64,000 bases of DNA, taken from positions 5,660 to 69,659 of the forward strand of contig SVKY01000001.1 in NCBI GenBank assembly GCA_015068235.1, written 5' to 3'. Positions 30,171 through 64,000 of this stretch are shown one piece after another. The stretch's first letter is position 1, and every line of letters begins with the position of its first letter. The position numbers and the translations under genes are program-made. This DNA is from Oscillospiraceae bacterium (GTDB lineage: Bacteria > Bacillota > Clostridia > Oscillospirales > Oscillospiraceae). The notes beneath the pieces were generated by a model. That model did not search any database. It saw nothing but the letters and a program-made list of their open reading frames with translations, and was not told the DNA's origin.

Positions 30171-30199
30171 TTGATTTTTCTCTGAGAATATGATATCTT
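30171..30199 (+). promoter_or_regulatory. Sigma-A-type promoter for the riboswitch transcript
   Basis: TTGATT, 17-nt spacer, TATCTT. Confidence 0.45.
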
Positions 30200-30203
30200 A
30201 ACG

Positions 30204-30345
30204 GCATGCGGAGGGAAGTCGGTGAAAATCCGGCACGAGCCCGTCGCCGTAATGCGCAAACAAAGGCACAGCCTTACCCGATGCCGTAAAGGGGAAATGC
30301 CATTGGCGTAAGCTGAGAAGGTGGTTGTGTTGGCGCTAAAGTCGG
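30204..30345 (+). promoter_or_regulatory. Cobalamin (B12) riboswitch
   Basis: The core GAGGGAAGTCGGTGAAAATCCGGCACGAGCCCGTCGCCGTAA and the B12-box-like GCCATTGGCG...GAGAAGGTGG match the conserved cobalamin riboswitch pattern. Confidence 0.8.
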
Positions 30346-30423
30346 AATATCTTCGCATAATAACTCACAAAAAAAGATCGCGAGTGCCGATTGTGTGAGA
30401 AATTATTTTGAAGGAGAAATGCT

Positions 30424-48490: not shown

Positions 48491-48520
48491 TAGGAGAGAA
48501 GTTAAGCACTTCTCTCCTAA
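48491..48520. terminator. Hairpin terminator at the end of the FemAB gene
   Basis: TAGGAGAGAAGT / ACTTCTCTCCTA 12-bp stem that overlaps the TAG stop. Confidence 0.6.
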
Positions 48521-49524
48521 AATATTTTAGCATACAATTTCAGCAATCGATAAATGAACGGCTTGCACACATAGTCAAACTGTCCTGCATAGGCAACAAA
48601 CTGCGCTGAAAAGCCTTGTTTGAACTGATGAAGTCCGAGCTTTGGATTGCCTTGCACGGGATAACCTTCCACCCCACGCATATCAAAATAACGACAACCT
48701 TCCAAAATTGCATCGCTTTGCATCTGCCATTGCAGAAGCTCATTGGGATGCGATTTTCGATTCTCTGGATCGGAAGCGCCGTACATATACCACGCTCGAT
48801 CGCCCATAAAAACCGCAATGCTGCCTGCAATTGCACGGTTGTTTTCCCACGCTAAATAAAGCCTTGCACGCTCCTCCATCTGATCTAAAAAGCGTTTGAA
48901 ATAGTGATACTCCCTGAGCGAAAAGCCGTTATGCTGCGCAGTTTTCCGCATCAGCGCATAAAAAGCATCCATGTCGCTCGACCTTTCGATCCGAACACCA
49001 TTTTTTACAGCAGTACGCAAGTGACGCCTTGTCGATGGATGATAGCTTTTTTCCAAGTCTTTTGGCGTTTTTTCGTGTAGATCAAGCAAATAGCACATTC
49101 TCGGCTGATACAAGGAATAGTTGTCTGCTTGATCACAGACAAAGCCCTCTCTTTTCATCCATGAGATAAATGCACTATCCTCCTCGCGCACCATCGGATC
49201 CAAGCGGAGGAAAACCGCATTCAAGCGATACGCAAGCTCTTTTGCCGCTTCTAAAAGCTTCAAAAGCGTCTTTTGATCTCCATGGTCATAAATTGGACCT
49301 CTTGGCGCATAGAGGATGGAAGTATTTTTCCATTTCAGCTTTCTTGACAGCAGCGTCATGGTGCCTCGAATTTTTCGATCTGTATCACGGCAAATGATAC
49401 CGTGCCACGACCAATCATTTTTTACTCGTCCCCATAGCGATGTTTGCATAAAGTGACATTTTTTATGCTGTTTTACAAACTCGTCCAATTCCTGCGCATT
49501 TACAAGCTCCGTAAATTCGATCAT
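48517..49524 (-). CDS. FemAB-family peptidoglycan interpeptide-bridge aminoacyltransferase
   Basis: CHFMQTSLWGRVK, ILYAPRGP, and a 335-aa two-GNAT-like layout typical of FemX/FemAB. Confidence 0.7.
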   Translation of the reverse strand: MIEFTELVNAQELDEFVKQHKKCHFMQTSLWGRVKNDWSWHGIICRDTDRKIRGTMTLLSRKLKWKNTSILYAPRGPIYDHGDQKTLLKLLEAAKELAYRLNAVFLRLDPMVREEDSAFISWMKREGFVCDQADNYSLYQPRMCYLLDLHEKTPKDLEKSYHPSTRRHLRTAVKNGVRIERSSDMDAFYALMRKTAQHNGFSLREYHYFKRFLDQMEERARLYLAWENNRAIAGSIAVFMGDRAWYMYGASDPENRKSHPNELLQWQMQSDAILEGCRYFDMRGVEGYPVQGNPKLGLHQFKQGFSAQFVAYAGQFDYVCKPFIYRLLKLYAKIF

Positions 49525-49586
49525 GATATGTACTTCCTTTTCTGTTTGTCAGAAAAAGAATAGCATTCACTTGCATCTGCTTTTCG

Positions 49587-50360
49587 TCAATCTTGCATCA
49601 TATCTGCATCCTCAGCTTCCGAAACTTCTGCATTCATAATGGAATCATCAATGCTTGTCCAACGGATTATTTCGGTATTTAGATTGAAATTAAGACCAAA
49701 ACCAAGACGTTCTCCCTCGGCATTCAAAAGATAGCCCGAGATCACAGCCCAATTTTCACCGTCATCATAATAGGTTTCACTGATTTTGATATCCTCAATG
49801 GTCATATCATAATATTTAGCAAATGCTTCGATTGTTTTTACGGACAATAGCTCTTCACCGAATGTTACGTTTAGGACATCCGCCGCTCGTTCCCAAGGAG
49901 CGATCGCACTTCCGATGCAAAGGATTTTATTGCTTTCTCGGTCAATGATGGCGAATGCACTTTCCGACACAATCCGATAGACTCTTAATATCTGCTGTTC
50001 ATCAATATAAACCAAATGCTCAACATCATAGTGATGTTCAAATTCTTCCACAGCAATTGGCGAAGATTGATATCCATATTCAAGCAGGTCTTCAAATTCT
50101 TTTTGCAGGATCTGCATCGCCTCGGTGATTTGATCGTCGGTGATGTCCAATGCAACCGCTTGTGCATTTGGGTCATTTAGAAGTTGAAGCCGCTTAAAAA
50201 GATCGATATCTTCGTCCAAGCTAACCTGAAGTGAAAGATCGCTTTTAAGTTCCCATTCGTGCGACTTTTGCATTTGATGCCCAAGCAACCATTTCGGAAG
50301 CATGAAGCCCGATGCCACAACTGCACCAATCATAAGAATCATGATCAGCCCTTTTTTCAC
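49587..50360 (-). CDS. Membrane-anchored acidic protein of unknown function
   Basis: GTG start behind GGAGGTGA, overlapping the kinase stop by 1 nt. One N-terminal TM segment. I recognise no family. Confidence 0.55.
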   Translation of the reverse strand: MKKGLIMILMIGAVVASGFMLPKWLLGHQMQKSHEWELKSDLSLQVSLDEDIDLFKRLQLLNDPNAQAVALDITDDQITEAMQILQKEFEDLLEYGYQSSPIAVEEFEHHYDVEHLVYIDEQQILRVYRIVSESAFAIIDRESNKILCIGSAIAPWERAADVLNVTFGEELLSVKTIEAFAKYYDMTIEDIKISETYYDDGENWAVISGYLLNAEGERLGFGLNFNLNTEIIRWTSIDDSIMNAEVSEAEDADMMQD

Positions 50361-51751
50361 TACGCCTCACCTCCCAAACAGATCGATACTCTCGTTCCCC
50401 TTCCGACCACACTTTCAAATCTGAGCTGTGTGCCGTGAAGCGCCGCAATGCGTTCACATAGTGCCAAACCTAAACCTGCTCCACCGTCCGCCCTTGCACG
50501 GGATTTGTTCACCATATAAAACGGCTCGGTCAAGCGTGGAAAAACCTCCTGCGACATACCTCTTCCTTCATCCGTAACACAAAGCAAATATCCGTTAGGG
50601 CGCATTTCGCCGCTTAAAAGAATATTGCTGCCTTCATCAGATGCTTTTCTTGCATTGTCGATCAGGTTGTATAGCAAATTATGCAGCAACTCAGGCATGA
50701 CAAAGAGGCTCCGATCCTCTACATTCAATCGAAGTGTAATCTGTTTCTGTTTTAACATAAAAGCGCAGCTTTTTTCGACCTCAAGTGAAAGCCTTTTCAT
50801 GGAGCAAAGCTTAAAATCAGGCTTCTGCCTCTCTAATGCAAATAAGTCCAACAGCGCAAACGACATTGCCTCCAAACGTTTGCCTTCGGAAACAATGTAA
50901 TCTGCCGCTTCAAAGCGCTTTTGCGCCGACAGCTCACGGCTTCTGAGCGTATCTGCATAACCAATAACGGAAGTCAATGGCGTTTTTAATTCATGAGCAA
51001 AGCTTGCGGTAAAATCCTTTTGCCTTCTGAGCGCTTCGGCAAGCTCCGCAATTTTTTGTTCCAGTACATCCGCCATGTCGTTAAAATCTTTTGCGACCTG
51101 TCCGAACTCATCTTTTGCGCGTACATTAACACGTCTGTCATAATAGCCCGAAGAAAGCCGCTTTGCAGTTCTTGAAATCTTGCTCAACGGTCTTGTTAAT
51201 ACCAAGGTAAAAAGCGTTGTCATCGCTACCGCAATTGCCAAAATCGCAAGCATGATATATTGATAACGTGATAAATTCTCTTGCGTTTGCAGGTAAAGCA
51301 TCGAAACATCATTTTCTCTTTGCACAAAGCAATGAAGAGAGCAAATCTCAAGAGAAAGCGTTGTTACTATATATTCATTCTCACTGATCCAGCTTTGCGA
51401 TGCGTATAGCTTCTGTGGAGCATATACCGCATCGGAGTGCATATTCGCTGTCTGAAAAATAAGCTGTTTTTCTTCGTCCCAAAGCGAAAACTCATAGCTG
51501 CTCAAAGCTCCGCCTGTTTTGGTAAGCTCCTGCATAAGCTGTTTTAGTTCCGTTGTTGACTTGATCTCTTGATCGGCTGATGTGATCGCACGCAGCATTG
51601 TCGAAAAAAGTCTCATTTCCTCCTGTGCAATATCCATCTGCGACGAGAGTCGATCTTCAAATGATAAGCTAACCACACTGTATCCGCCAATCGAAAGCGA
51701 CAGAGTCAAAAGTATCGTTGTCAGCAGGATCATTTTCCACGAAAACTTCAT
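50360..51751 (-). CDS. Sensor histidine kinase (two TM segments, HAMP, HisKA, HATPase)
   Basis: H-box SFAHELKTPLTSVIGYADTL and G-box GGAGLGLALCERI. Start ATG 51751 is preceded by GGAGG; the ORF-track start at 51913 lies inside the regulator gene. Confidence 0.85.
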   Translation of the reverse strand: MKFSWKMILLTTILLTLSLSIGGYSVVSLSFEDRLSSQMDIAQEEMRLFSTMLRAITSADQEIKSTTELKQLMQELTKTGGALSSYEFSLWDEEKQLIFQTANMHSDAVYAPQKLYASQSWISENEYIVTTLSLEICSLHCFVQRENDVSMLYLQTQENLSRYQYIMLAILAIAVAMTTLFTLVLTRPLSKISRTAKRLSSGYYDRRVNVRAKDEFGQVAKDFNDMADVLEQKIAELAEALRRQKDFTASFAHELKTPLTSVIGYADTLRSRELSAQKRFEAADYIVSEGKRLEAMSFALLDLFALERQKPDFKLCSMKRLSLEVEKSCAFMLKQKQITLRLNVEDRSLFVMPELLHNLLYNLIDNARKASDEGSNILLSGEMRPNGYLLCVTDEGRGMSQEVFPRLTEPFYMVNKSRARADGGAGLGLALCERIAALHGTQLRFESVVGRGTRVSICLGGEA

Positions 51752-51752
51752 T

Positions 51753-52403
51753 CTATGCCTCCAACCGATACCCAACCTTATAGATTGCAACCAAGCATTT
51801 CTGCCAGCCGAGTTTTTTTCTGAGTCTTTGCACATGCAAATCAACTGTGCGGCTATCTCCGTTGTATTCCGTTTCCCAGACACGCTCATAGATCGTATCT
51901 CGGAAAAGTGCAATATTTCTGTTTCTGACGAACAGCAATAACAGCTCGTATTCCTTGTGTGTTAACATGATCGGCACACCCTTTTTACTGACGAGCATCG
52001 ATTTTGGCTCAATGATGACATCCCCGATCTCATAGCGTTCCTCGGTTTTTCCGGTTCTGCGCAAAACACTTTCGACTCGAGCGATCAGCTCAACGATCTC
52101 AAAGGGCTTGACCAAATAATCATCTGCACCTGCACGCAGCCCCTGCACACGATCCTGCAAGCTTCCCTTCGCTGTGATAAAGATCACAGGTGTTCCTAAC
52201 GGACGAATTTGCTCCAACAGCTCATAGCCGCTCGCCCCCGGTAGCATAATGTCGAGCAAAATCAGATCATATGTATGATTCTCGATCAAATCCGCAGCCT
52301 CCAAACCGTCATAGACACAGCTGCATTGATATCCACTTGCCGATAAATTCAAGTCGATGAGATTTGCAATCGGACGTTCATCCTCAACAATCAATATTTT
52401 CAT
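51753..52403 (-). CDS. OmpR-family response regulator
   Basis: MKILIVEDERPIANLI, DLILLDIMLPG, and a winged-helix C-terminus VYKVGYRLE. The ORF-track N-terminal extension to 52670 reads through an intergenic repeat. Confidence 0.88.
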   Translation of the reverse strand: MKILIVEDERPIANLIDLNLSASGYQCSCVYDGLEAADLIENHTYDLILLDIMLPGASGYELLEQIRPLGTPVIFITAKGSLQDRVQGLRAGADDYLVKPFEIVELIARVESVLRRTGKTEERYEIGDVIIEPKSMLVSKKGVPIMLTHKEYELLLLFVRNRNIALFRDTIYERVWETEYNGDSRTVDLHVQRLRKKLGWQKCLVAIYKVGYRLEA

Positions 52404-52483
52404 TTGTACACCTTCTTTTCTAAAATTTGCTAACACATTAAGTAATTTCCGATTTACCGGGCAGTTTCGGATTTGTACAGAGG

Positions 52484-52635
52484 AAAGCCTTCTCCTTGAG
52501 GAGAAGGTGCCACGAAGGGGCAGATGAGGTGGAAAGATTACGAATTTGCCGAAAGCTATTGTAAAAAAGCAACTTTTTCTGCACACCTCATCAGTCAGCT
52601 GCGCTGACAGCTTCTCATCAAGGAGAAGCCTTAGC
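52484..52635. repeat. Composite palindromic intergenic repeat made of two ~50-nt inverted arms, each with two internal hairpins, around a ~50-nt spacer
   Basis: The reverse complement of arm A, CACCTCATCTGCCCCTTCGTGGCACCTTCTCCTCAAGGAGAAGGCT, aligns with arm B, CACCTCATCAGTCAGCTGCGCTGACAGCTTCTCATCAAGGAGAAGCCT. Confidence 0.6.
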
Positions 52636-52718
52636 CTGCGCGAACTGAAAGATAAATCGGAATTTGACAAACATTACGATTCTAATTTTGCAACAAATTT
52701 GCATCATTTTTCCATCAT

Positions 52719-52754: not shown

Positions 52755-55262
52755 TTATATCGTTGATTTTGCGGTGTCGATGCCGTCCCCTTGGAGCTTC
52801 AGCCGTTCGACCGCTTCTTCGCGCATTTTGTATTTCAAAATTTTTCCTGCCGCATTCATCGGGAAAGAATCGACAAAGCAGATATATTTCGGTACCTTGT
52901 GACGTGCCATACTCGCCTTAATAAAATCCGTCATTTCCTGTTCAGAAACCGAGCCGTGCTCTTTGAGGATGATGCACGCCATGATCTCCTCACCGTATTT
53001 TTTATCCGGCACACCGATGACTTGAACATCTCTGACCTTCGGATGTGTATAGATAAATTCCTCGATTTCTTTGGGATAAATGTTTTCACCGCCACGGATG
53101 ATCATGTCCTTGAGTCTGCCTGTAATGCGATAATTTCCATCCTGATCTCTGCACGCCAAATCGCCGGAATGCAGCCAGCCTTCGCTGTCCACCGTGTCAC
53201 GAGTTGCATCGGGCATCTTGTAATAGCCCTTCATCGTGTTGTACCCGCGAGAGCAGAATTCGCCGTTGACACCATCAGGAACTTCTTCGCCTGTCTCGGG
53301 ATCGATGATCTTGCATTGAATATGTGGGAACGCATAACCGACCGTATCGCATCGCAAATCGATTGGATCATCCCAGGAGGACATCGTGCTGCCCGGTGCA
53401 GATTCCGTCTGACCGTAAACGCTGACGATCCCTCGCATATTCATCTCGTCTTTCTGCGCCGCTCTGCGCATCAAATCAGGCGGACAGCCGGCACCAGCCA
53501 TAATGCCTGTACGCATATAGGAAAAGTCGGTTTTTCTATAATCCGGATGGTTAAACATTGCAATGAACATCGTCGGCACGCCGTGGAAGCAGGTAATATG
53601 CTCCTGATTGATGCACGCAAGCGAGGATTTTGCCGAAAAATACGGCAACGGACACAGCGTTGCACCGTGGGTCATAGCAGCTGTCATTGCAAGCACCATG
53701 CCGAAACAGTGGAACATCGGTACCTGGATCATCATGCGATCGGCAGTGGACAGATCCATACGGTCACCGATACATTTTCCATCATTGACAACATTGTAGT
53801 GTGTCAACATAACACCTTTGGGAAAGCCTGTTGTGCCCGATGTATACTGCATATTGCAAACATCGTTGGCTCTGACATTCGCTGCCATGCGATGGACTTC
53901 TTCAATCGGCGTTAAGCTTGCTCGTTCCATCGCTTCATCAAATGTCAAACAGCCGTTTTGGCGGAAGCCAACCGTAATTACATTCCGCAAAAATGGCAGA
54001 CGTTTGCAATGCAAGCTCTTTCCCACTTTCGTGTTCTCAATTTCAGGACAAAGGGTATTTATGATCTCTTTGTAATTAGAATCCAAGCATGATTCAATCA
54101 TCACGAGAGTGTGCGTGTCGGACTGTCTGAGCAGATATTCCGCTTCATGGATCTTGTAAGCCGTATTGACCGTCACCAAGATCGCACCGATCTTCGTTGC
54201 CGCCCAAAATGTAATATACCACGCAGGCACATTTGTTGCCCATATTGCGACCTTACTGCCTGCACGTACACCCATGGAGATCAATGCTCTTGCGAAATTA
54301 TCAACATCTTCTCTGAATTCTTCGTATGTTCGTGTATAGTCTAAGGTCGTATACTTAAACGCATACTGATCCGGGAATTCCTCAACCACACGGTCCAACA
54401 GCTGTGGGAATGTCAGATCAATCAGTTCATCTTTTTTCCACAGGAACTGACCTGAGTGATCGTGGTTGAAATAAAGAGACTTTTTCATGCTTCGGGGCGA
54501 GTCAAAGCGGTTCATATAATTGACAAAATACGGAAAAATAATGTCACGCTCCTGCAGATCCTCCATCCATTCGGGCTTCCATTCCAACGAAATAAAGCCA
54601 TCGTAGTTGATCGAGGACAGCGCACGCATCATATCGGCAACGGGAAGTGTTCCCTCTCCGATCAGATTATAAGTATCCTTATTATCCGAATCACGCAGAT
54701 GCACATGGCGCACATAGGCACCTAAATTCTTGATCGTTGTGTCTGCGCTCTCGCCCATATCCCGATAAGGATGATGCATATCCCAAAGTGCACCGAGATG
54801 ATCGGACGCAAATTCATCCATCACATTTCGAAGCCTTGCCGTATCTGCAAAAATGCCACTCGTTTTGATCAGCAATGTAACGCCGAGCTCCTGTGCATTG
54901 TCCAGTAGCTTTGCAATCCGTTCACGCACAAGCACTTCATTCTCCGTCAGTGCACAGGCGACGACATATTCCACCTTCATCTGTCGTGCGATGTTCATCA
55001 AATCATAAAGCATTTCAATCTTTTCGCCTTCATCTGACAAATCGCACGACGTGTCAAAGCATGGAATTGCCAGCTTTTTCTCTCTAAGCTGACGTGCAGT
55101 CACTGCCAACTGATACTTCTCAAAAGCGCCGCCACGCTCTGTCATGGCGCTTTTATGCAGATTATAGACCTCAATTCCGTGAAAACGCATGTCGATTGCC
55201 GCATCTATCTGCGCTTGCCACGGCAAATCCAGCCAACCTCTTGTGGAAAAGGAGAGCTTCAT
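52755..55262 (-). CDS. Fusion protein: xylose-isomerase-like TIM barrel (about 280 aa) plus AMP-dependent acyl-CoA synthetase (about 550 aa)
   Basis: N-terminus MKLSFSTRGWLDLPWQAQIDAAIDMRFHGIEVYN...HLRDSD. The C-terminal part has YTSGTTGFPKGVMLTH, YGQTES, LHSGDLA...GRLKDMIIRGGENIYP and AAGKILK. ATGA overlap with the upstream gene. Confidence 0.8.
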   Translation of the reverse strand: MKLSFSTRGWLDLPWQAQIDAAIDMRFHGIEVYNLHKSAMTERGGAFEKYQLAVTARQLREKKLAIPCFDTSCDLSDEGEKIEMLYDLMNIARQMKVEYVVACALTENEVLVRERIAKLLDNAQELGVTLLIKTSGIFADTARLRNVMDEFASDHLGALWDMHHPYRDMGESADTTIKNLGAYVRHVHLRDSDNKDTYNLIGEGTLPVADMMRALSSINYDGFISLEWKPEWMEDLQERDIIFPYFVNYMNRFDSPRSMKKSLYFNHDHSGQFLWKKDELIDLTFPQLLDRVVEEFPDQYAFKYTTLDYTRTYEEFREDVDNFARALISMGVRAGSKVAIWATNVPAWYITFWAATKIGAILVTVNTAYKIHEAEYLLRQSDTHTLVMIESCLDSNYKEIINTLCPEIENTKVGKSLHCKRLPFLRNVITVGFRQNGCLTFDEAMERASLTPIEEVHRMAANVRANDVCNMQYTSGTTGFPKGVMLTHYNVVNDGKCIGDRMDLSTADRMMIQVPMFHCFGMVLAMTAAMTHGATLCPLPYFSAKSSLACINQEHITCFHGVPTMFIAMFNHPDYRKTDFSYMRTGIMAGAGCPPDLMRRAAQKDEMNMRGIVSVYGQTESAPGSTMSSWDDPIDLRCDTVGYAFPHIQCKIIDPETGEEVPDGVNGEFCSRGYNTMKGYYKMPDATRDTVDSEGWLHSGDLACRDQDGNYRITGRLKDMIIRGGENIYPKEIEEFIYTHPKVRDVQVIGVPDKKYGEEIMACIILKEHGSVSEQEMTDFIKASMARHKVPKYICFVDSFPMNAAGKILKYKMREEAVERLKLQGDGIDTAKSTI

Positions 55263-56662
55263 ACCTCCGCCTCCTCGTATACGATTTTATTCAATGCGCT
55301 CAAATAAGCTCGGATACTCGAACCGACGATATCGGTTGAAATACCACAGCCTGAATAGAGCTTTCCTTCCGAGCGCAGCTTGACCACCGTCTGACCCATT
55401 GCCTCGGTACCCTCGGTGACAGATTGAATTTGGAAATCGTCGAGTTCATAATGTCTGCCCACGATCTGCTCAATTGCCAAAAAAGCCGCATCAATTGGAC
55501 CATCACCAATGCAAACGCGCTCTAAATTAGCATCCTGTCGTTTGAGCTTCATATGTGCAGTTGCTGAGATCGTGTTGCCTGCGGTGATGACATAATTGTC
55601 AAGAACATATGTCGGCGGCACCTGCATCGCAGCCGATGCCACAATGGCGTCAAGCTCTTTTGCGCTGACCTTTTCCTTCTTCTCGGCAATTGACTTAAAT
55701 GCCTCATAAACAGCCGCACTGTCCTCTTCGGAAAGATCATAGCCCAAATGAACGACCGCCTGCGCAACCGTTGAAACATCGTCATGCACTGTTAAATAAT
55801 CGCTCTCGTCACCTTCTCGAACACCACTTTCAAACGGCGAGGTATCGCTTTTTTGAATCGTGCACATTCGTTCGATCTGCTTGCAAATTCTTCGCATCTG
55901 CGTGGTTTGGATCGTGCTTCGCAGCGCAAAAGCGTCCTCCTTTGCAGCAATCACACGGGCAATATTTTCAACGCTTGCCGTGTTGCGAGGGCAAACCGCA
56001 GCCTTGATTTCATCGACTCCACACGAAAGTGAAGCAACCACACAGGCATTTGCCATGCTGAGTGTATCATTGCAGCGTACACCAACATGAATTTCTTTCA
56101 ATTCAGGCAGTGCATCATAGACAGATTGGACAAATGCCTTGAATTCATCAGGCAGCATCGTTCCTGCAGCATCACAAAGTGTGACGCTCTGCGCGCCTGC
56201 ATCCATTGCGGTCTTGAGCGCACGGATCAAAAAAGTTGAGTCGCTACGTGTAGCATCATCGGCAATAAATTCAACATCATCGCAGACCTCACGGCAATTT
56301 TTGACCGTTTCTTCGATCGAAGCAAGCATCGCCTCAGGCTTCTTGTGGAACAGATATTCCATCTGCACTGCACTGACAGAAGCTCTTACCTGCAAACGAG
56401 GATGTTTTGCTTCCTTTAACGCCTGTATGCTCATTGCAACGCTTTGGGCATTTAATTCCACAGGTACGGCAACAATGCTCTGCTTAACGGCAAGTGCGAT
56501 CGATTTGATCAGCAAGGTATCGATCTTCGTCCGCTTGATCCCATCCAATTCGATCACGCTCACACCAAGCTTATCTAAAAGCTTGGCAAGCTCGATCTTT
56601 TCCTTAAAACTCAGACAATCGCCCTGCTGCATTGTAACATCACTGATTTTGATCGACTTCAT
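55259..56662 (-). CDS. 2-isopropylmalate-synthase-like (HMGL/DRE-TIM plus LeuA dimer/regulatory domain) protein with substituted catalytic motifs
   Basis: ISDVTMQQGDC occupies the place of DTTLRDGEQ, and GVRCNDTLSMANA occupies the place of HCHNDLGLAVAN. The C-terminal LeuA-allosteric-like domain is well preserved (GDGPIDAAFLAIEQIVG...VTEGTEAMGQTVVKL). Confidence 0.65.
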   Translation of the reverse strand: MKSIKISDVTMQQGDCLSFKEKIELAKLLDKLGVSVIELDGIKRTKIDTLLIKSIALAVKQSIVAVPVELNAQSVAMSIQALKEAKHPRLQVRASVSAVQMEYLFHKKPEAMLASIEETVKNCREVCDDVEFIADDATRSDSTFLIRALKTAMDAGAQSVTLCDAAGTMLPDEFKAFVQSVYDALPELKEIHVGVRCNDTLSMANACVVASLSCGVDEIKAAVCPRNTASVENIARVIAAKEDAFALRSTIQTTQMRRICKQIERMCTIQKSDTSPFESGVREGDESDYLTVHDDVSTVAQAVVHLGYDLSEEDSAAVYEAFKSIAEKKEKVSAKELDAIVASAAMQVPPTYVLDNYVITAGNTISATAHMKLKRQDANLERVCIGDGPIDAAFLAIEQIVGRHYELDDFQIQSVTEGTEAMGQTVVKLRSEGKLYSGCGISTDIVGSSIRAYLSALNKIVYEEAEV

Positions 56663-56677
56663 AATTGTTCTCCTAAC

Positions 56678-56932
56678 AAAAAAATCCCTGAAGCTCACGC
56701 TTCAGGGACGAATTTCAAAATTCGCGGTACCACCCTGCTTATCCCCGGAGGGATCACTCTCAGGCTCAAACAAGCCTTCTGCCGATAACGGGGCAACCGT
56801 GCTTCACTACATTCTCGCAAAGCCGACTCGGGAGGGAGAGCGTCAAATCCACGTTTATCGGCTCGCAGCGACCGCCGACTCTCTGAAAACGCAAACAGAT
56901 TCAACTTAGCTCCGTCAACATCTTTTGCTGTT
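56678..56932 (-). promoter_or_regulatory. T-box leader 1, inferred specifier CUC (Leu), with terminator
   Basis: On the minus strand: K-turn TTGACGGAG...CTCCCGAG, CAGAGAG, the T-box AGCAGGGTGGTACCGCGAA (plus coordinates 56721-56739), the terminator TCCCTGAAGC-GTGA-GCTTCAGGGA followed by TTTTTTT, then the RBS. CUC lies at 56836-56838. Confidence 0.85.
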
Positions 56933-56938
56933 AAAAGC

Positions 56939-57004
56939 ATTAAATCACAAAAACATGAAATTGTCAAGAAAAATATTGACAATCGCTTTTCAGTGTGATA
57001 AAGT
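56939..57004. promoter_or_regulatory. Back-to-back divergent sigma-A promoters for T-box leaders 1 and 2
   Basis: Minus strand: TTGACA (56962-56967), 17-nt spacer, TTTAAT (56939-56944). Plus strand: TTGACA (56976-56981), 17-nt spacer, TAAAGT (56999-57004). Confidence 0.55.
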
Positions 57005-57010
57005 AAATGC

Positions 57011-57270
57011 AATAAAGCAAAAGCGTTGACGAAGACGGTCGAATTTTAGTGCTTTCAGAGAGCCGATGTTTGGTGTAAATCGGCAGCATTTGATTCAGTA
57101 CCCATCCCTTCCGAGCCGGAGACCCAAAGATCACACCCAGTAGGCTCTCCCGTATATCTGCGTTAAGGATTAGAGCTTGTTTGAGCTCGAAGAGTGCGGT
57201 TTTTGCCGAAATTGAGTGGTACCGCGGGCGAAATGTATGCTCGTCTCAAGAGAGATCTTGAGACGTTTTT
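57011..57270 (+). promoter_or_regulatory. T-box leader 2, inferred specifier AUC (Ile), with terminator
   Basis: GCGTTGACGAAG...CTTCCGAGC K-turn, CAGAGAG, the distal TGGTGTAAA, the T-box ATTGAGTGGTACCGCGGGC (57209-57227), and the terminator CGTCTCAAG...CTTGAGACG followed by TTTTTTT. AUC lies at 57114-57116. Confidence 0.85.
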
Positions 57271-57296
57271 TTATTTTCTTCAAGGAGGAATCATCG

Positions 57297-59555
57297 ATGT
57301 CAAGCACAACACAATTAATGGAAATTGCCCTTCGTATTCGCGAAATGCGACAAATCGAAGGCTATTCGATCGAAGAAATGGCGGAAAGAACAGCAATTTC
57401 GGCAGAGCTTTATCGCTCCTATGAAACAGGAACCGTTGATCTTCCCTTTTCATTCATTCATAAATGTGCCCTATCCTTCGGAATTGAGATTTCGGAGCTT
57501 TTAGAAGGACATAGTGCTCACCTTTCCTCCTATGCTGTCACTCGTAAAGGTATGGGTAAGCAAACCGCCAAAGAAGAAGGTATCTCGATCGTCAATTTGG
57601 CACCCCGCTTCCGTTCGAAGATCGCCGAACCTTATTGGGTCACCTATGAATATAACAAGGAACAGGAGCAGCGTCCCATTCAGCTTGCAACGCACAGCGG
57701 ACAGGAATTTGATCTGGTTCTGCGTGGTCGCTTGAAGGTTCAAATCGGTGATCATATCGAATATCTTGACGAGGGCGACAGTATTTATTACAACTCCTCG
57801 ATTCCGCACGGCATGGTTGCTGTGGACGGTCGCGATTGTCTCTTCTGCGCCGTGGTCCTTCCCGGAGAAGAAGTTGAGGAACAAGAGATTCGTCGCAGCT
57901 TGATCAGCGCAAAGCGCAGTGAACCGTATATTTGTCAAAAATTCATTGAGACAACGGAAAATTCCGACGGCGCACTTCAAACAATCGCGTTTAAGCAGGA
58001 AGATAGCTTTAACTTTGCCTTTGATATCGTCGATGAGATCGCCAAGAAATACCCCAACAAGCGTGCAATGCTGCATTTGGACAAGCATCAAAACGAACGT
58101 GATCTTACCTTTGAGGATATGCGCAAGGGTTCTTCCAGAGCGGCGAACTATTTCAAAGCTCTTGGCGTTAAGCGTGGCGACCGTGTGATGCTGGTACTCA
58201 AGCGCCACTATCAATTCTGGTATGCGATTTTGGGTCTGCACAAGCTCGGTGCGATCGCCATTCCTGCAACCAATCAGCTTTTAGAGCACGATTTCAGCTA
58301 TCGTTTTAAGGCGGCAGGCGTCAGTGCAATCCTCTGCACCGCAGACGGTTCTACCGCAGATGCGGTCGATGTAGCTGCCAAAGAATACTCAGATTTGAAA
58401 ACAAAGATCATTGTCGGTGGCAGCCGTGACGGATGGCATGATTTCGATGCAGAATTTGGACTTTACAGCAGCCGTTTTGAGCGCACAGAGGATGCCCCTT
58501 GCGGCAAGGATCCGATGCTGATGTTCTTTACCTCCGGTACAACAGGCTATCCCAAGATCGCAACGCATGATTACCGCTATCCCCTTGCGCATTTTGTCAC
58601 GGCGAAATATTGGCACGGAGTATCTTCAGAAGGTCTGCACTTTACCATCTCAGAAACCGGTTGGGGCAAAGCACTTTGGGGCAAGCTCTACGGTCAGTGG
58701 CTGTGCGAGGGTGCTGTATTTACCTATGACTTTGACCGCTTTGATGCAGCGGAAATTCTACCGATGTTTGCAAAATATGGCATCACGACCTTCTGCGCAC
58801 CGCCTACCATGTATCGCATGATGATCCGACAGGATATTAGCAGCTATGATTTTTCCTCCCTGCAGCATATTACCAGCGCAGGCGAAGCGCTGAATCCTGA
58901 GGTTTACCGTGTGTTTGAAAAGCAGACAGGTCTGCGCATCATGGAGGGCTACGGTCAGACAGAAACAACCCTTTCCATTGGCAATCTCATGGGACATGCG
59001 CCGAGATTTGGCTCAATGGGCAAGGCAATGCCGCACTTTGATGTGCATCTTCTCGATCCCGATGGCAACGAATGCACAACAGGTGTCAGTGGCGAAATTT
59101 GCATCAAGACCAGCAAAAAAATCCCCTGCGGTCTGTTTATGGGCTATTATCGTGATGAAGAACGCACCAACGACGTTTGGCATGACGGCTATTATCATAC
59201 AGGTGATGTCGCCTGGCGAGATGAGGACGGATATTTCTGGTATGTTGGTCGCGTGGACGATGTGATCAAGTCCTCCGGCTATCGCATTGGACCGTTCGAG
59301 ATCGAAAGCGTGATCACAGAGCTTCCCTATGTACTCGAGTGCGGCGTCAGCGCAGCAGCTGACGAGGTGCGTGGTCAGGTTGTTAAGGCAAGCATCGTTT
59401 TGGTCAAGGGCACAGCGGCGACCGAGGAATTGAAAAAAGAGATTCAAAACTATGTCAAATCTCGTACCGCACCTTATAAATATCCTCGTATCGTGGAGTT
59501 CCGTGAGAGCCTGCCCAAGACGATCAGCGGTAAAATTATCCGAAATAAACTTTAA
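57297..59555 (+). CDS. XRE-type HTH plus cupin domain fused to a medium-chain-type acyl-CoA synthetase (paralog A)
   Basis: HTH: LRIREMRQIEGYSIEEMAERTAIS. Cupin: DLVLRGRLKVQIGDHIEYLDEGDSIYYNSSIPHG. ACS: FTSGTTGYPK, YGQTET, YHTGDVAWRDEDGYFWYVGRVDDVIKSSGYRIGPFEIE and PKTISGKIIR. AGGAGG lies upstream of ATG 57297. Confidence 0.85.
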   Translation: MSSTTQLMEIALRIREMRQIEGYSIEEMAERTAISAELYRSYETGTVDLPFSFIHKCALSFGIEISELLEGHSAHLSSYAVTRKGMGKQTAKEEGISIVNLAPRFRSKIAEPYWVTYEYNKEQEQRPIQLATHSGQEFDLVLRGRLKVQIGDHIEYLDEGDSIYYNSSIPHGMVAVDGRDCLFCAVVLPGEEVEEQEIRRSLISAKRSEPYICQKFIETTENSDGALQTIAFKQEDSFNFAFDIVDEIAKKYPNKRAMLHLDKHQNERDLTFEDMRKGSSRAANYFKALGVKRGDRVMLVLKRHYQFWYAILGLHKLGAIAIPATNQLLEHDFSYRFKAAGVSAILCTADGSTADAVDVAAKEYSDLKTKIIVGGSRDGWHDFDAEFGLYSSRFERTEDAPCGKDPMLMFFTSGTTGYPKIATHDYRYPLAHFVTAKYWHGVSSEGLHFTISETGWGKALWGKLYGQWLCEGAVFTYDFDRFDAAEILPMFAKYGITTFCAPPTMYRMMIRQDISSYDFSSLQHITSAGEALNPEVYRVFEKQTGLRIMEGYGQTETTLSIGNLMGHAPRFGSMGKAMPHFDVHLLDPDGNECTTGVSGEICIKTSKKIPCGLFMGYYRDEERTNDVWHDGYYHTGDVAWRDEDGYFWYVGRVDDVIKSSGYRIGPFEIESVITELPYVLECGVSAAADEVRGQVVKASIVLVKGTAATEELKKEIQNYVKSRTAPYKYPRIVEFRESLPKTISGKIIRNKL

Positions 59556-59575
59556 CTCTTTACTTGCAAAAAGTG

Positions 59576-59861
59576 TTGACAAATGAACCTCGACATGATA
59601 TGATTCTATAAAGACAAAGACGGAGAGAGATTTCTGCACAAATCATCTGCAGAGAATTGGCGGTCGGTGCAAGCCATGGTGATGTGGAAGTCTTGTCGCT
59701 CCCGAGTCGGAGAGAAGAAAGCTTACTGGCGATTAGACCTCTCTCGCGTTAGCTGCGTTAACCGCCTATTGAGTGGCATCCGAACGGATGCAATTTGAGT
59801 GGTACCGCGGGTTGTATTTTCAGCTCGTCTCAAAGGATCAATCTTTGAGACGAGCTTTTAC
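59576..59861 (+). promoter_or_regulatory. Promoter plus T-box leader 3, inferred specifier GUC (Val), with terminator
   Basis: TTGACA (59576), 17-nt spacer, TATGAT (59599). Stem I GACGGAG...CTCCCGAGTC, GCAGAGA, GGTGCAAG, and the T-box ATTTGAGTGGTACCGCGGGT (59792-59811). Terminator AGCTCGTCTCAAAG...CTTTGAGACGAGCT, then TTTT. GUC lies at 59695-59697. Confidence 0.85.
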
Positions 59862-59882
59862 TATTCTCATACAGGAGGAGCT

Positions 59883-62174
59883 ATGCAGGAACAAAAACTA
59901 ACAGGTTTGGAATATAAAATTCGGGAGATGGCATCTCGTATCCGCGAATTGCGCGAGATCACTGGCTTGAGCGTTGCTGAAATGGCAAAGCGCACCGGTA
60001 TCACAATTAGCGAATACGAGCTCTGTGAGGCAGGGCAGACCGATCTGAATATCGCATTTCTTTATCGCTGCGCCCTAAGCTTTGGCGTTGACGTGACTGA
60101 CCTGATCGAAGGTCACAGCCCGAAGCTGCGTTCTTATACCCTCACTCGATCGGGGCGTGGTCAAAAGATCGAGCAGGCGCATCGTATGACCTACTATAAC
60201 CTCGCAGCAGACTTCCGTAATCGTGTTGCGTTGCCTTTATATGTTGTCATTCAATATAACCAGGACGCTGAGCACGAGGACATCGAGCTGACCACACATG
60301 ACGGTCAGGAGTGTGACCTTGTGATCAAGGGCAGCATGAAGATTCAAATCGGTGAGCATACCGAGATTCTGCACGAGGGCGACAGCATTTATTATGACAG
60401 CTCCACACCTCACGGCATGATCGCTGTCGGTGGTGAGGATTGCGCCTTCTATGCGATGGTTTTGAATCCTTCAGACGATGTCGGCTTAACGCCGAAAGCT
60501 GAGAAGCTTCCGACGCCGTCAGCAACGGAAAAAGACGAAGAAAGACGCATCTATCACGATTTTATCATACCTACGGAAAACGTCTCCGGCGGCATTGAAA
60601 AAATCGCTTTTCAAAATGAAGATCGATTTAATTTTGCTTTTGATGTTGTCGATGCTTTGGCAGAACGTAAGCCTGAAAAGCTTGCAATGCTGCACATTTC
60701 CGAAAATGGAACCGAGCGCCGATTTACCTTCTTGGATGTCAAGAAGGAATCTGCCAGAGCCGCAAACTATTTCAAATCCTTGGGCATTCGCCGTGGCGAT
60801 CGAGTCATGCTCGTGCTCAAGCGGCATTATCAATTTTGGTTTGCACTTTTGGGCTTGCACAAGCTTGGCGCTGTTGCGATCCCTGCAACGAATCAGCTCC
60901 AGGCACACGATTTTACATATCGTTTCAATGCAGCAGATGTCCGTGCAATTCTTTGCACAGCAGACGGAGCTACTGCAGATGAAGTTGCGAGCGCCGCATC
61001 GAAGTGTCCGCAGGTCAAGCACCTGATCATGGTAAATGGTCAAAAAGAAGGCTGGCATGACTTTAATGAAGAATATGCCATGTTCAGTAGCCACTTCCAT
61101 CGAAATGAAGACACACCGTGCGGAAACGATCCAATGCTGATGTTCTTCACATCAGGCACATCGGGCTATCCGAAGCTGGCAGCACACAATTACAAATATC
61201 CCTTGGGTCATTTTATTACTGCAAAATATTGGCACCGAGTCAATCCCGATGGTCTGCATTTGACCATATCCGACACAGGCTGGGCAAAGGCTCTTTGGGG
61301 CAAGCTCTACGGTCAGTGGCTGTGCGAAGCAGCGATCTTTGTCTATGACTTTGACCGCTTCGATGCAGAAAAAATCCTTCCGTTGTTTGCCAAGCATCGT
61401 ATCACAACCTTCTGCGCACCTCCGACGATGTACCGCATGCTGATCAAGGGTGATTTGAGCAAATATGATCTGAGCTCGATCGAGCATGCCTCCATCGCAG
61501 GCGAAGCGCTCAATCCCGAGGTTTTCCGACAGTTCCAGAAGGCAACTGGGCTTCAAATCATGGAGGGCTTCGGTCAATCCGAAAGCACATTGATCATCGG
61601 CAACCTCATTGGCGGCAAGCACAAGATCGGTTCGATGGGCAAGCCCGTCCCCCTTTATGATGTACACCTGCTCAGCGCTGACGGCTCCCCTGCTGCACCC
61701 GGTGAGACCGGAGAGATCTGTATCAACATTGCAAACGAGCTTCCTTGTGGTCTAAGCTATGCTTACGAAGGCAGCCCTGATGTCACCGCCAAAACATGGC
61801 GTGACGGCTTCTATCACACAGGCGACCTCGCTTGGAAGGACGAAGACGGCTTCTTCTGGTATGTCGGACGTGCCGATGATGTGATCAAGTCCTCGGGCTA
61901 TCGCATTGGACCGTTCGAAATTGAAAATGTTATCATGGAGCTTCCCTATGTCTTGGAATGCGGCGTTTCTGCTGCGCCCGATGAAGTGCGTGGGCAGATT
62001 GTCAAGGCAAGCATCGTGCTTGTCAAGGGCACGCAAGCATCTGATGAGCTGAAAAAAGAAATTCAGAACTACGTCAAATCTCGTACAGCGCCTTATAAAT
62101 ATCCCCGAATCGTTGAATTCAGAGAAAGCCTTCCCAAAACGACCAGCGGAAAGATCATCCGCAAGCAGCTATGA
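59883..62174 (+). CDS. XRE-type HTH plus cupin domain fused to a medium-chain-type acyl-CoA synthetase (paralog B)
   Basis: Same architecture and motifs as 57297-59555, collinear along the whole length. AGGAGGAG lies upstream of ATG 59883. Confidence 0.85.
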   Translation: MQEQKLTGLEYKIREMASRIRELREITGLSVAEMAKRTGITISEYELCEAGQTDLNIAFLYRCALSFGVDVTDLIEGHSPKLRSYTLTRSGRGQKIEQAHRMTYYNLAADFRNRVALPLYVVIQYNQDAEHEDIELTTHDGQECDLVIKGSMKIQIGEHTEILHEGDSIYYDSSTPHGMIAVGGEDCAFYAMVLNPSDDVGLTPKAEKLPTPSATEKDEERRIYHDFIIPTENVSGGIEKIAFQNEDRFNFAFDVVDALAERKPEKLAMLHISENGTERRFTFLDVKKESARAANYFKSLGIRRGDRVMLVLKRHYQFWFALLGLHKLGAVAIPATNQLQAHDFTYRFNAADVRAILCTADGATADEVASAASKCPQVKHLIMVNGQKEGWHDFNEEYAMFSSHFHRNEDTPCGNDPMLMFFTSGTSGYPKLAAHNYKYPLGHFITAKYWHRVNPDGLHLTISDTGWAKALWGKLYGQWLCEAAIFVYDFDRFDAEKILPLFAKHRITTFCAPPTMYRMLIKGDLSKYDLSSIEHASIAGEALNPEVFRQFQKATGLQIMEGFGQSESTLIIGNLIGGKHKIGSMGKPVPLYDVHLLSADGSPAAPGETGEICINIANELPCGLSYAYEGSPDVTAKTWRDGFYHTGDLAWKDEDGFFWYVGRADDVIKSSGYRIGPFEIENVIMELPYVLECGVSAAPDEVRGQIVKASIVLVKGTQASDELKKEIQNYVKSRTAPYKYPRIVEFRESLPKTTSGKIIRKQL

Positions 62175-62857
62175 TACGCCGTTTGACCCTCTTTGCAGGG
62201 CACTATGGAAGCGGAAAGACCAATATTGCGGTAAATTATGCTGCATATTTGCGAAAGCAAGGCTTCGCTGTGACGATTGCAGATTTGGACATCGTTAATC
62301 CTTATTTCAGAACAAAGGACAGCGAAAAGCTGCTTAATTCTCTTGGAATTGATTTGATCTGTTCCCCTTTTGCCAACAGCAACTTAGATGTTCCTGCCAT
62401 GCCGGCAGAGGTTTACAGTCTAATCGACAGCCGAACGACGCATGGCGTATTGGATATCGGCGGCGATGATCGTGGTGCGTTGGCACTTGGCAGATACGCT
62501 CCGATGATCAAAGAAGAGAATGATTATGAGATGCTTTTTGTGATCAACCGTTCTCGCCCACTGACTCGCTCTGTGGAAGAGACGCTTCATGTCATGCGTG
62601 AGATCGAAACAGCATGCTCACTTCCCTTCACCGCCGTTGTCAATAACACAAATTTGGGGCGCCATACCACAAAGGAGGACATCCTTGCATCATTGGATTA
62701 TGCAAAAGGCGTGTGCAAAGCAAGCGGTCTTCCGCTTAAAATGACAACGATTCACCACCCGTTATATTCTGAATTGCAATCACATATGAACGACCTGTTC
62801 CCCATACATTTACAGGAACAATACTACGAACTTAGAACGGAGGCCACACATGGCTAA
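62171..62857 (+). CDS. SIMIBI-class P-loop NTPase (MinD/CooC/Mrp-like), function unknown
   Basis: Deviant Walker A FAGHYGSGKTNIAVNYA and LDIGGDD. ATGA overlap with the upstream synthetase, and 8-nt overlap with the downstream ferredoxin. Confidence 0.6.
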   Translation: MIRRLTLFAGHYGSGKTNIAVNYAAYLRKQGFAVTIADLDIVNPYFRTKDSEKLLNSLGIDLICSPFANSNLDVPAMPAEVYSLIDSRTTHGVLDIGGDDRGALALGRYAPMIKEENDYEMLFVINRSRPLTRSVEETLHVMREIETACSLPFTAVVNNTNLGRHTTKEDILASLDYAKGVCKASGLPLKMTTIHHPLYSELQSHMNDLFPIHLQEQYYELRTEATHG

Positions 62858-63056
62858 ACTGACATTCAAAGAAGAATTGTGCAAAGGCTGCGGTCTTTGC
62901 GTCAATGCCTGTCCGAAGGGGCTGCTTGCACTTTCGAGAACAAGGCTGAATCAAAAGGGGCATTCCCCCGTCGAATTAACAAAGCCCGAAGATTGTATCG
63001 GGTGTGCATTCTGCGCAACCATGTGTCCTGATTGCGTGATCACGGTAGAAAGGTAG
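62850..63056 (+). CDS. 2x[4Fe-4S] ferredoxin, delta-subunit type of 2-oxoacid:ferredoxin oxidoreductases
   Basis: CKGCGLCVNACP and CIGCAFCATMCP. 68 aa, immediately upstream of the alpha subunit. Confidence 0.8.
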   Translation: MAKLTFKEELCKGCGLCVNACPKGLLALSRTRLNQKGHSPVELTKPEDCIGCAFCATMCPDCVITVER

Positions 63057-63062: not shown

Positions 63063-64000
63063 ATGGAAAAAGTATTGATGAAAGGCAACGAAGCCATTGC
63101 GGAAGCTGCGATTTTAGCAGGCTGCCGTCACTATTTTGGTTATCCGATCACGCCACAGACCGAGGTTGCCGCTTATATGGCAAAGAGAATGCCAAAAATC
63201 GGCGGCGTATTTCTCCAAGCCGAGAGCGAAATTGCAGCGATCAACATGGTCTACGGTGTTGCCGCTACAGGCAAGCGTGCGATGACCTCATCCTCGAGTC
63301 CCGGCATTGCACTCAAATGCGAAGGTATTTCCTACTTGGCAGGTGCTGATTTGCCTGCTTTGATCGTCAACGTACAGCGAGGCGGTCCCGGCTTGGGCGG
63401 TATTCAGCCGTCGCAGTCGGACTATTTCCTCTGCACCAGAGGTCCCGGACACGGTGACTTCCATGTTTTGGTGCTCGCACCGTCAAGCGTACAAGAAATG
63501 GCTGATTTGACACTCAAGGGCTTCGAGCTTGCTGAAAAATACCGCATGCCGGCAATGCTGCTTGCTGATGGCACAATGGGTCAGATGATGGAGCCTGTTG
63601 TCTTGCCGGAAAAGCTCGAAGCTGCTCCTGAAGCACCCGAATGGGCAACCACAGGCACGCAGGGCAAGCGTAAGCACAACATCGCAAATTCCCTCTATCT
63701 CTCCCCTGCTGAGCTGGAACAGCTGAATTTGGAGCGTTTCCGCCGCTATGCGGAGATCGAAGAAAATGAGTGCATGTGGGAAGAATTTATGATGGACGAT
63801 GCGGAATATTGTGTCGTTTCCTGCGGCATTACCGCTCGTGTTTCCAGAAATGCGATTTTGGAGGCACGTGCAAAAGGGATCAAGGTCGGTATGATCCGCC
63901 CGATCACCCTTTGGCCCTTCCCCAAAAAGCCTTTACTCGCCGCAGCAGACCTTGTCAAATCCTTCCTTGTAGTCGAGCTCAGCATGGGTCAAATGCGTGA
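63063..64000 (+). CDS. 2-oxoacid:ferredoxin oxidoreductase alpha subunit (VorB/KorA type), 3-prime end beyond the window
   Basis: Not in the ORF track because it is open-ended. My translation is MEKVLMKGNEAIAEAAILAGCRHYFGYPITPQTEVAAYMAKRMPKIGGVFLQAESEIAAINMVYGVAATGKRAMTSSSSPGIALK...VQRGGPGLGGIQPSQSDYF. Confidence 0.8.
   Translation, partial: MEKVLMKGNEAIAEAAILAGCRHYFGYPITPQTEVAAYMAKRMPKIGGVFLQAESEIAAINMVYGVAATGKRAMTSSSSPGIALKCEGISYLAGADLPALIVNVQRGGPGLGGIQPSQSDYFLCTRGPGHGDFHVLVLAPSSVQEMADLTLKGFELAEKYRMPAMLLADGTMGQMMEPVVLPEKLEAAPEAPEWATTGTQGKRKHNIANSLYLSPAELEQLNLERFRRYAEIEENECMWEEFMMDDAEYCVVSCGITARVSRNAILEARAKGIKVGMIRPITLWPFPKKPLLAAADLVKSFLVVELSMGQMR

Follow-up and report, generated by a model that had tools for sequence, protein, structure and literature searches.

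Tandem HTH-cupin/acyl-CoA synthetase fusions behind isoleucine and valine T-boxes: candidate isoacid:CoA ligases for branched-chain amino acid salvage in an Oscillospiraceae bacterium

What is the role of an enzyme that carries what looks like a transcription factor at its N-terminus, lies behind a tRNA-sensing leader and occurs twice in a row? The question is raised by a window of 64,000 nucleotides (the whole stretch of DNA analysed here, positions 5,660 to 69,659 of contig SVKY01000001.1, assembly GCA_015068235.1, Oscillospiraceae bacterium). Two adjacent forward-strand genes of this window, A (57297-59555) and B (59883-62174), each encode a helix-turn-helix (HTH)-like domain and a cupin fused to an AMP-forming acyl-CoA synthetase (ACS), and each of them follows a T-box leader of its own. 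The answer that we consider probable is that A and B are isoacid:CoA ligases opening a T-box-gated salvage of branched short-chain acids to the branched-chain amino acids (BCAA). An earlier note on this DNA, made from the sequence alone and called here the original prediction, had described both genes, and we say below what became of its claims.

Both genes begin with ATG behind strong ribosome-binding sites (RBSs), AAGGAGGA for A and AGGAGGA for B, and encode proteins of 752 and 763 aa respectively. In protein A a five-helix HTH-like domain (aa 1-72) is followed by a cupin (aa ~88-190, with His133, Glu137 and His171), a linker (aa 191-232) that is poorly conserved and predicted with low structural confidence, and a Macs/MbcS-type AMP-forming ACS (aa 233-752). 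Protein B has the same domain layout, with His139, Glu143 and His177 in its cupin. Regarding the Pfam families, HTH_19 passed its cut-off of 30.2 bits in both proteins (33.2 in A and 37.2 in B), Cupin_2 was also above its cut-off in both, and HTH_3 was slightly under its cut-off of 23 bits (21.5 and 22.8). Of the HTH_3 and cupin_2 domains that had been named originally, the cupin therefore stands and HTH_19 takes the place of HTH_3. AMP-binding was found with E = 3e-63 in A and 6e-60 in B, and AMP-binding_C with E around 1e-20 in both (4e-20 in A). Neither protein has lost any of the ANL core motifs A3, A5, A7, A8 and A10, nor the catalytic lysine; protein A has TSGTTGYPK, GQTE, YHTGD, GRVDDVIKSSG and PKTISGK, and B has the equivalents. 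Thus, the adenylate-forming enzyme is complete, as had been claimed, and each gene encodes one polypeptide with a catalytic and a DNA-binding-type domain, which is the layout of a trigger enzyme.

The two proteins are collinear and share 62% aa identity. Their coding sequences have a nonsynonymous divergence (dN) of 0.30 and a synonymous divergence (dS) of around 2, which is saturated, and therefore the duplication is old. This agrees with the old collinear paralogs of the original prediction, whose coordinates and starts for the two ORFs can also be kept. The same note had named an assembly or frameshift artefact as something that would undo its reading of the fusion. We can rule this out, because 108 complete fused ORFs were found in independent assemblies and the Pfam architecture of A and B is present in thousands of database proteins; the fusion is genuine.

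T-box leaders respond to uncharged cognate tRNA, and so to amino acid starvation, by switching on the genes behind them. Three of them were found in the window with the Rfam model RF00230, all exceeding its gathering score of 93 bits. Leader A (57017-57251, forward strand, 99.0 bits) has the specifier AUC (Ile) at 57104-57106 and the T-box sequence GAGUGGUACCGCG. It is preceded by a sigma-70-like promoter at 56976-57004 (TTGACA, a 17-nt spacer and TAAAGT, with TG before the -10 box), a near-consensus type common to 59 of 68 related loci, and it ends in a terminator at 57242-57272, made of a 10-bp stem and a run of seven Ts. Leader B (59608-59835, forward strand, 95.1 bits) has the specifier GUC (Val) at 59695-59697 and again the T-box sequence GAGUGGUACCGCG, with its promoter at 59576-59604 (TTGACA, a 17-nt spacer and TATGAT, again TG-extended at the -10 box); the stem of its terminator, at 59822-59856, has 15 bp. 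The third leader (56701-56927, reverse strand, 106.8 bits) is divergent from gene A; its specifier is CUC (Leu) at 56836-56838, its T-box sequence is GGGUGGUACCGCG and its terminator lies at 56709-56684 on the minus strand. In the Rfam alignments the leaders have a stem I with K-turn, specifier loop, AGAGA bulge and distal loop, and the conserved T-box sequence goes together with mutually exclusive antiterminator and terminator structures and a U-run. Promoter B begins 20 nt past the stop codon of gene A, and no terminator was found between this stop codon and promoter B, so that transcripts of A run into the Val leader.

As the specifier we took the triplet whose last letter stands one base ahead of where the 3' strand of the lower helix of stem I begins. 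In order to check this register, a covariance model of stem I was built from the three window leaders and run on the window and on 80 related loci taken from species-representative genomes. The 144 stem I matches gave ATC in 72 cases, GTA in 43, CTC in 12, GTC in 10, CTG in 6 and GCA in one. A BCAA codon was thus present in 143 of the 144 matches, which a wrong register would not yield. The specifiers that had been inferred earlier for the two genes, AUC versus GUC, are borne out by this check as well as by the Rfam alignments. The lone GCA was found at 8328-8436 of contig L001 (related contigs are cited by our own L numbers), ahead of the P-loop and vor genes described below, in a genome with a single fusion gene. 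It is probably a register ambiguity, as the lower helix can there be extended by one pair (UGC plus A).

Regarding the genes that these leaders control, we took the first long ORF behind each stem I match. Of the 72 Ile specifiers, 70 stood before a fusion closest to A; of the 53 Val specifiers (GUA or GUC), 50 stood before a fusion closest to B, and all 18 Leu specifiers (CUC or CUG) stood before a LeuA-like gene. Furthermore, in a neighbour-joining tree of the 108 complete fusions the 39 Val-associated proteins formed one clade, the 69 Ile-associated proteins lay outside it, and none was misplaced. The host lineages of the related loci are gut and rumen Clostridia of the Acutalibacteraceae, Oscillospiraceae, Christensenellaceae and Ruminococcaceae. 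The separation of the clades implies that the duplication predates the radiation of these Clostridia, and each paralog has kept its own amino acid signal ever since. The original prediction had proposed a subfunctionalisation of the paralogs by substrate, and this is now strongly supported by the match between specifier and clade across the 80 loci, together with one residue of the catalytic domain, which is Gly in A and Ala in B.

The closest solved structure to the catalytic part is MacsMa of Methanosarcina acetivorans (PDB 3ETC; E = 9e-186 and 622 bits over aa 232-749 of A), an enzyme that prefers 2-methylbutyrate and that has Gly at the position of Trp414 of Acs and an alternative pocket tryptophan, Trp259 (PMC10455477). 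The best-scoring named family for both paralogs was MbcS (NF047394), with 431 bits for A and 420 bits for B and a profile covering aa 242-752. The equivalog cut-off of 850 bits was missed by both, and therefore they are relatives and not orthologs of MbcS. The methylbutyryl-CoA synthetase MbcS of S. aureus takes 2-methylbutyrate and isobutyrate and hardly takes isovalerate (PMC10026030).

We defined clade-discriminating positions as those at least 85% conserved within each clade and different between the clades. There are 14 of them, 13 in the first 211 residues and only one in the 520-residue catalytic part (Fisher p = 2e-6). This one is Gly457 of A (codon at 58665-58667, forward strand, motif TGW-G-K), a Gly kept by 99% of the Ile-clade proteins, and its counterpart Ala468 of B (codon at 61284-61286, forward strand, motif TGW-A-K), which is Ala in 100% of the Val clade. 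The position aligns with Val310 of E. coli/S. enterica Acs. At the neighbouring pocket positions, the alignment of A and B gives Lys for Thr311, Ala for Val386 and Gly for Trp414 (G553 in A and G564 in B). These four Acs residues, Val310, Thr311, Val386 and Trp414, line the acetate pocket, as reportedly shown by Ingram-Smith et al. (2006), a study listed among the references of PMC13584741. Furthermore, W439 of A, in the motif KYW, aligns with Trp259 of MacsMa. Thus, Gly replaces the Acs Trp414 and the alternative tryptophan is kept, as expected of an enlarged acyl pocket.

The 3ETC alignment also shows that MacsMa has Gly at the G457 position. It is therefore like A in three respects, the Gly at the Trp414 position, the alternative tryptophan and the Gly at G457, and it is unlike B, which has Ala in the pocket. 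MacsMa differs from both window proteins in being archaeal and not known as T-box controlled, and its crystallised 580-aa chain lacks the HTH-cupin module, so that it was aligned to the catalytic part only. Isobutyrate is one carbon smaller than 2-methylbutyrate, and Ala adds one methyl group to the pocket wall of B. The predicted substrates are 2-methylbutyrate for A and isobutyrate for B, as suggested by the T-box specificity, the relatives and the one pocket residue. The original prediction had seen medium-chain ACSs here and had proposed to align their acyl pockets with a medium-chain ACS structure. In the catalytic part, the comparison of the two clades yielded a single discriminating residue, G457 versus A468. 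Regarding the enzyme class, an acyl-CoA synthetase it is, but not a generic one, since it is of the Macs/MbcS type and its context is that of a biosynthetic route from isoacids to BCAA.

This context starts directly behind gene B. A gene for a P-loop protein of 228 aa (CbiA/ParA/NUBPL-like; 62171-62857, forward strand) is translationally coupled to B, whose stop codon overlaps its start, and nearly all the related loci have kept it in this place, behind the ACS genes and immediately upstream of vorD; its product may help to mature the oxidoreductase that follows or serve it as an accessory factor. On the same strand come the VorD-type small 2x[4Fe-4S] ferredoxin-like subunit of a 2-oxoacid:ferredoxin oxidoreductase (62850-63056) and VorB (63063-64000, incomplete at the window end). 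VorB reached 489 bits with NCBIfam NF005507 against a cut-off of 399 and is the alpha subunit of 3-methyl-2-oxobutanoate (2-oxoisovalerate):ferredoxin oxidoreductase (VOR). Past the window, the gene string was read from contigs L083-L085, which carry an identical B protein. After VorB the same genome has VorA, VorC, a CN-hydrolase and an IlvE-like Aminotran_4 protein, and therefore the order is A, B, P-loop, vorD/B/A/C, CN-hydrolase and ilvE-like. Acid activation, a VOR-type oxidoreductase and a branched-chain aminotransferase, the gene set of the isoacid route, are thus found in one string.

Among 82 related loci, the core order of A, B, P-loop and VorD/B/A/C is common to most, and in loci without a B gene the vor genes come directly after A. 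A LeuA-like gene and a second ACS are often found upstream of A; for an IlvE-like gene, the frequent places are ahead of the P-loop gene and behind vor. The CN-hydrolase gene is present in only a few of these loci. In L083 (15523-17407, around 3.6 kb past the window end) this gene of the nitrilase superfamily lies directly before the Aminotran_4 gene, a pairing that recalls the glutamine-transaminase/omega-amidase pair and by analogy could mean that glutamine is the amino donor.

The Leu T-box, on the other side of gene A, heads a minus-strand operon (52755-56662) of two genes. One encodes a LeuA-like synthase of 467 aa (55259-56662), which is below all the LeuA equivalog cut-offs, and the other (52755-55262) a protein of 835 aa in which a PRK12583-like AMP-forming ACS is fused to a TIM barrel of the xylose-isomerase-like kind (AP_endonuc_2). 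This ACS is presumably the candidate activator of isovalerate, and a different ACS behind the Leu T-box fits the fact that MbcS barely takes this acid.

From these elements a route can be proposed. Uncharged tRNA-Ile would pair with the AUC specifier and stabilise the antiterminator of leader A, so that gene A would be transcribed, and uncharged tRNA-Val would act likewise at the GUC leader of gene B. Protein A would then convert 2-methylbutyrate to 2-methylbutyryl-CoA and protein B isobutyrate to isobutyryl-CoA, the choice between the acids depending largely on one residue, as Gly in A may make room for the C5 acid and Ala in B for the C4 acid. The co-transcribed VorDBAC would reductively carboxylate the acyl-CoAs to 2-oxo acids with reduced ferredoxin, and the IlvE-like aminotransferase would turn these into Ile and Val. 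The Leu T-box would control a different ACS, presumably activating isovalerate. Finally, a small ligand (acid, 2-oxo acid or amino acid) would most likely bind in the cupin of the HTH-like/cupin module, which would modulate the enzyme at the protein level. We favour the biosynthetic direction for two reasons, namely that the T-boxes induce on uncharged tRNA and that AMP-forming ligases work in the direction of acyl-CoA formation.

The reductive carboxylation of isoacids to BCAA in rumen anaerobes was reportedly worked out by Allison, Bryant, Robinson and Peel in the 1960s-70s. In this rumen route isobutyrate gives Val, 2-methylbutyrate gives Ile and isovalerate gives Leu (PMC7356843, PMC2812497). 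The gene set of the cluster matches every step of it, although the route itself was defined physiologically. In S. aureus one MbcS takes both acids and feeds branched-chain fatty-acid synthesis, whereas A and B are predicted to be two specialised paralogs feeding VOR and IlvE.

What does the N-terminal module add to such a ligase? In the model obtained with AlphaFold from a 77-sequence alignment, an XRE bundle of five helices is connected through a flexible stretch to a cupin barrel, which is modelled confidently; for the linker to the ligase the confidence is very low. Between A and B the dN of the module is around one-fifth of the saturated dS. Since 13 of the 14 discriminating residues lie in this N-terminal part, the module is functional and has diverged in a paralog-specific way. 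His133, Glu137 and His171 are kept in all 108 fused proteins and in 52-54 of 55 relatives of stand-alone size.

Both in sequence and in fold, the best match to the module in the PDB is the uncharacterised protein 1Y9Q of V. cholerae, which was followed in the Foldseek ranking by HppE, Psf4, HEPD and MPnS. E. coli PuuR aligns with it from end to end (22% identity, E = 7e-8). The module has the two-domain order of PuuR and 1Y9Q, an N-terminal XRE-type HTH and then Cupin_2, in around 185 aa and with the same His/Glu/His. It differs from the PuuR type in being fused to or encoded beside an enzyme, and in having a more acidic HTH, an unconserved recognition helix and no operator that we could find at its promoters. 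The phosphonate-pathway enzymes HppE, Psf4, HEPD and MPnS, which have an HTH-like alpha domain followed by an Fe(II) cupin, matched it in fold with E values from 1e-12 to 1e-9. Identity to them is only 17-20% and the TM-score around 0.45, and they are oxygen- or peroxide-dependent enzymes of aerobes with no ACS association. BirA, NadR and PutA are bifunctional enzyme-repressors, BirA being an adenylate-forming ligase with an N-terminal HTH. A and B are like them in joining a DNA-binding-type and a catalytic domain in one chain, and unlike them in the extra cupin, the riboswitch-like leader control and the lack of an operator in our searches.

The module also occurs as a separate gene. A word-indexed search for close stand-alone homologs returned almost only fragments of fusions, and an exhaustive search with the module returned many proteins of around 185 aa with 32-44% identity. 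In seven of the eight contigs checked, all from other lineages, the module gene is followed after 3-75 nt by a same-strand gene for an AMP-forming ACS of around 550 aa, fragmented in one of the seven; the eighth contig had no ACS neighbour to the module. Compared with the ligase part of A, the adjacent ACS has 55% identity in L086 and 50% in L088. One of the pairs is from Prolixibacteraceae (Bacteroidota), and the genes around the pairs differ between contigs. No T-box was found in L086 or L088, the two split loci that were scanned. These comparisons thus make the module and the ligase subfamily an old two-gene unit, which was later fused in the lineage of the window. Such an old unit argues for a direct functional link, the module being either a local regulator or a protein partner.

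Three further contigs touch on the subject. In the unrelated metagenome contig L095 (197-5243), the module and ACS genes come directly after Fer4, POR_N/PFOR_II and TPP_enzyme_C plus POR genes, so that the link between ligase and oxidoreductase exists also where the module is unfused. In the 523-kb contig L081 (6001-10897), both paralogs, still preceded by Ile and Val T-boxes, are split by a change of frame in the linker into an HTH-cupin ORF and an ACS ORF; in one of the two this happens at an A-run shortened by 2 nt. L082 (6001-8268) has an in-frame TAG in the same linker. The splits in L081 and L082 could be real gene fission, read-through or sequencing errors. The Leu T-box, the downstream vor-ilvE genes, the Macs/MbcS type of the enzymes and the separate-gene form of the module had not been mentioned in the original prediction.

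Some points weigh against the reading proposed here. VOR and IlvE, which are needed for all three BCAA, sit behind the Val leader only, and this is awkward if Ile alone is limiting. We infer the substrates of A and B only from the specifiers, the relatives and one pocket residue. The full-length AlphaFold model, with a shallow alignment, was uninformative on how the module packs against the ligase (pLDDT 62, pTM 0.52). Furthermore, the module is homologous end to end to a proven repressor, PuuR, with the triad kept, and an operator could lie elsewhere in the genome. One could also read the cluster as catabolic or lipid-directed, with acyl-CoA primers made for branched-chain fatty acids or with an oxidative VOR degrading BCAA. 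VOR enzymes are indeed reversible, and MbcS, the best NCBIfam match, feeds fatty-acid synthesis (PMC10026030). A T-box induced by uncharged tRNA would be the wrong signal for degrading the same amino acid, and an AMP-forming ligase spends ATP, which does not suit an energy-conserving exit of fermentation. Moreover, the transcription unit of the ligases includes VOR and an IlvE-like aminotransferase, and each paralog is tied to one specifier across around 70 genomes. Regarding lipids, no FabH or other fatty-acid genes were seen in the 82 loci, in a scan that covered only 11 reference proteins. Therefore, we consider the catabolic or lipid-directed use very improbable, and the salvage of isoacids to BCAA remains the preferred explanation of the cluster.

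For the module, the original prediction had proposed a transcription-factor layer of the trigger-enzyme type. Put in full, as a rival to our reading, the module would bind DNA as PuuR does and repress its own or other promoters according to the cupin ligand or the catalytic state of the ligase, a second layer over the T-box; in BirA, by analogy, the acyl-adenylate is the corepressor. HTH_19 is above its Pfam cut-off, the predicted fold is the canonical five-helix XRE bundle, and the whole module is homologous to PuuR and to 1Y9Q, which is annotated as a regulator. Moreover, in other lineages the separate module gene heads a two-gene operon with the ACS, a common layout of local auto-regulators, and a clade-specific difference, Tyr42 versus Cys48, sits in the putative recognition helix. 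However, positions 33-38 and 40-41 of this helix vary even within the Ile clade. Neither a shared operator nor a dyad was found in the 69 Ile-type and 50 Val-type promoters with exact k-mers and degenerate 10-mers, allowing up to two mismatches on both strands; over-represented in these 119 promoters were only an A/T-rich (UP-like) upstream tract, the -35 box and the extended -10. The sole palindrome of the window, TTGTCAA-N8-TTGACAA at 56961-56983, was tried as an operator and rejected, as it consists of the -35 boxes of promoter A and of the divergent Leu-operon promoter, set back to back, and is not shared by other loci. The mean net charge of the HTH region is around -6 in fused and stand-alone proteins alike, against -1 in PuuR. 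As proof against DNA binding this charge is weakened by the negative value of PuuR itself, and the difference (-4 to -6) is only suggestive.

Those HTH-cupin enzymes that share the fold bear on the question in two ways. The HppE-type unit of HTH-like domain and cupin is not known to bind DNA, which speaks against the repressor; conversely, the module might itself be a metal-dependent cupin enzyme, HppE-like or a non-redox lyase or isomerase, acting on the acid or the product and making the protein bifunctional. His, Glu and His do stand at metal-ligand positions in every fused protein and in around 95% of the stand-alone ones, HppE, Psf4, HEPD and MPnS are among the closest folds, and the module is tightly coupled to ACS across phyla. 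Nevertheless, the same three residues are found in the repressor PuuR, and for this reason the triad was rejected as proof of an enzyme. Between isoacid and acyl-CoA the pathway has no obvious need of a further chemical step, the anaerobic hosts argue against oxygen-dependent chemistry, and the Foldseek TM-scores are low. We therefore give little credence to a cupin enzyme, and an auto-repressing trigger enzyme, although less improbable, is also doubtful and drew no support from our tests; classical binding of the module to operators at its own promoters is unlikely, though it may bind DNA in another way. The module is most likely a ligand-binding modulator at the protein level rather than a classical operator-binding repressor, and the clustering of clade-specific residues in it favours a cupin that senses a small molecule, as the original prediction had also considered.

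More tentatively, it is possible that the module is a phylum-spanning regulatory partner of Macs-type ACS, in which a metabolite in the His-Glu-His site may gate adenylation allosterically or couple it to expression in a BirA-like manner. If this were true, the isoacid, the 2-oxo acid, or Ile or Val as the end product would be candidate ligands, and in these gut and rumen Clostridia a feedback specific to each paralog would act quickly, over a T-box control that is slower.

The pathway (in physiological terms), the T-boxes, the Macs/MbcS-type ligases and the HTH-cupin proteins are already known. In the open literature that we searched, we found no description of amino-acid-specific isoacid ligases each behind a matching T-box, nor of the Gly/Ala pocket difference or a fused or adjacent HTH-cupin partner, and a survey of T-boxes (PMC2494555) makes no mention of acyl-CoA ligases or ferredoxin oxidoreductases. 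That rumen and gut anaerobes need isoacids and convert them to BCAA has been known for sixty years, and isoacids are fed to cattle; in the literature that we found, there was no account of the genes for the first, committing step. Here the specifiers act as labels telling which ligase serves which amino acid, and they are stable across around 70 genomes. A gene-level map of the pathway, with its ligases, VOR and aminotransferase, can be used in metagenome annotation and in predicting isoacid dependence. Furthermore, the one-residue rule of Gly versus Ala for C5 versus C4 branched acids would be directly testable in ANL enzymes, and a salvage route would join the synthetases, classical biosynthesis genes and transporters in the T-box regulon. 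The HTH-cupin unit travelling with this ligase subfamily points to an uncharacterised control of, or help for, adenylate-forming enzymes.

Other features were seen in passing. A cobalamin riboswitch aptamer lies at 30165-30372 of the window on the forward strand, with 45.8 bits, above the Rfam gathering score. On the reverse strand, at 43916-46885, a 989-aa surface protein has six BspA-type leucine-rich-repeat blocks and three SLH domains, and near it, at 48517-52670, there are a FemAB-family gene and a two-component system. Finally, just upstream of the split HTH-cupin/ACS pair of L086, a fluoride riboswitch (3598-3680) is placed ahead of a Na+/H+ exchanger-family gene and is probably unrelated to the pair.

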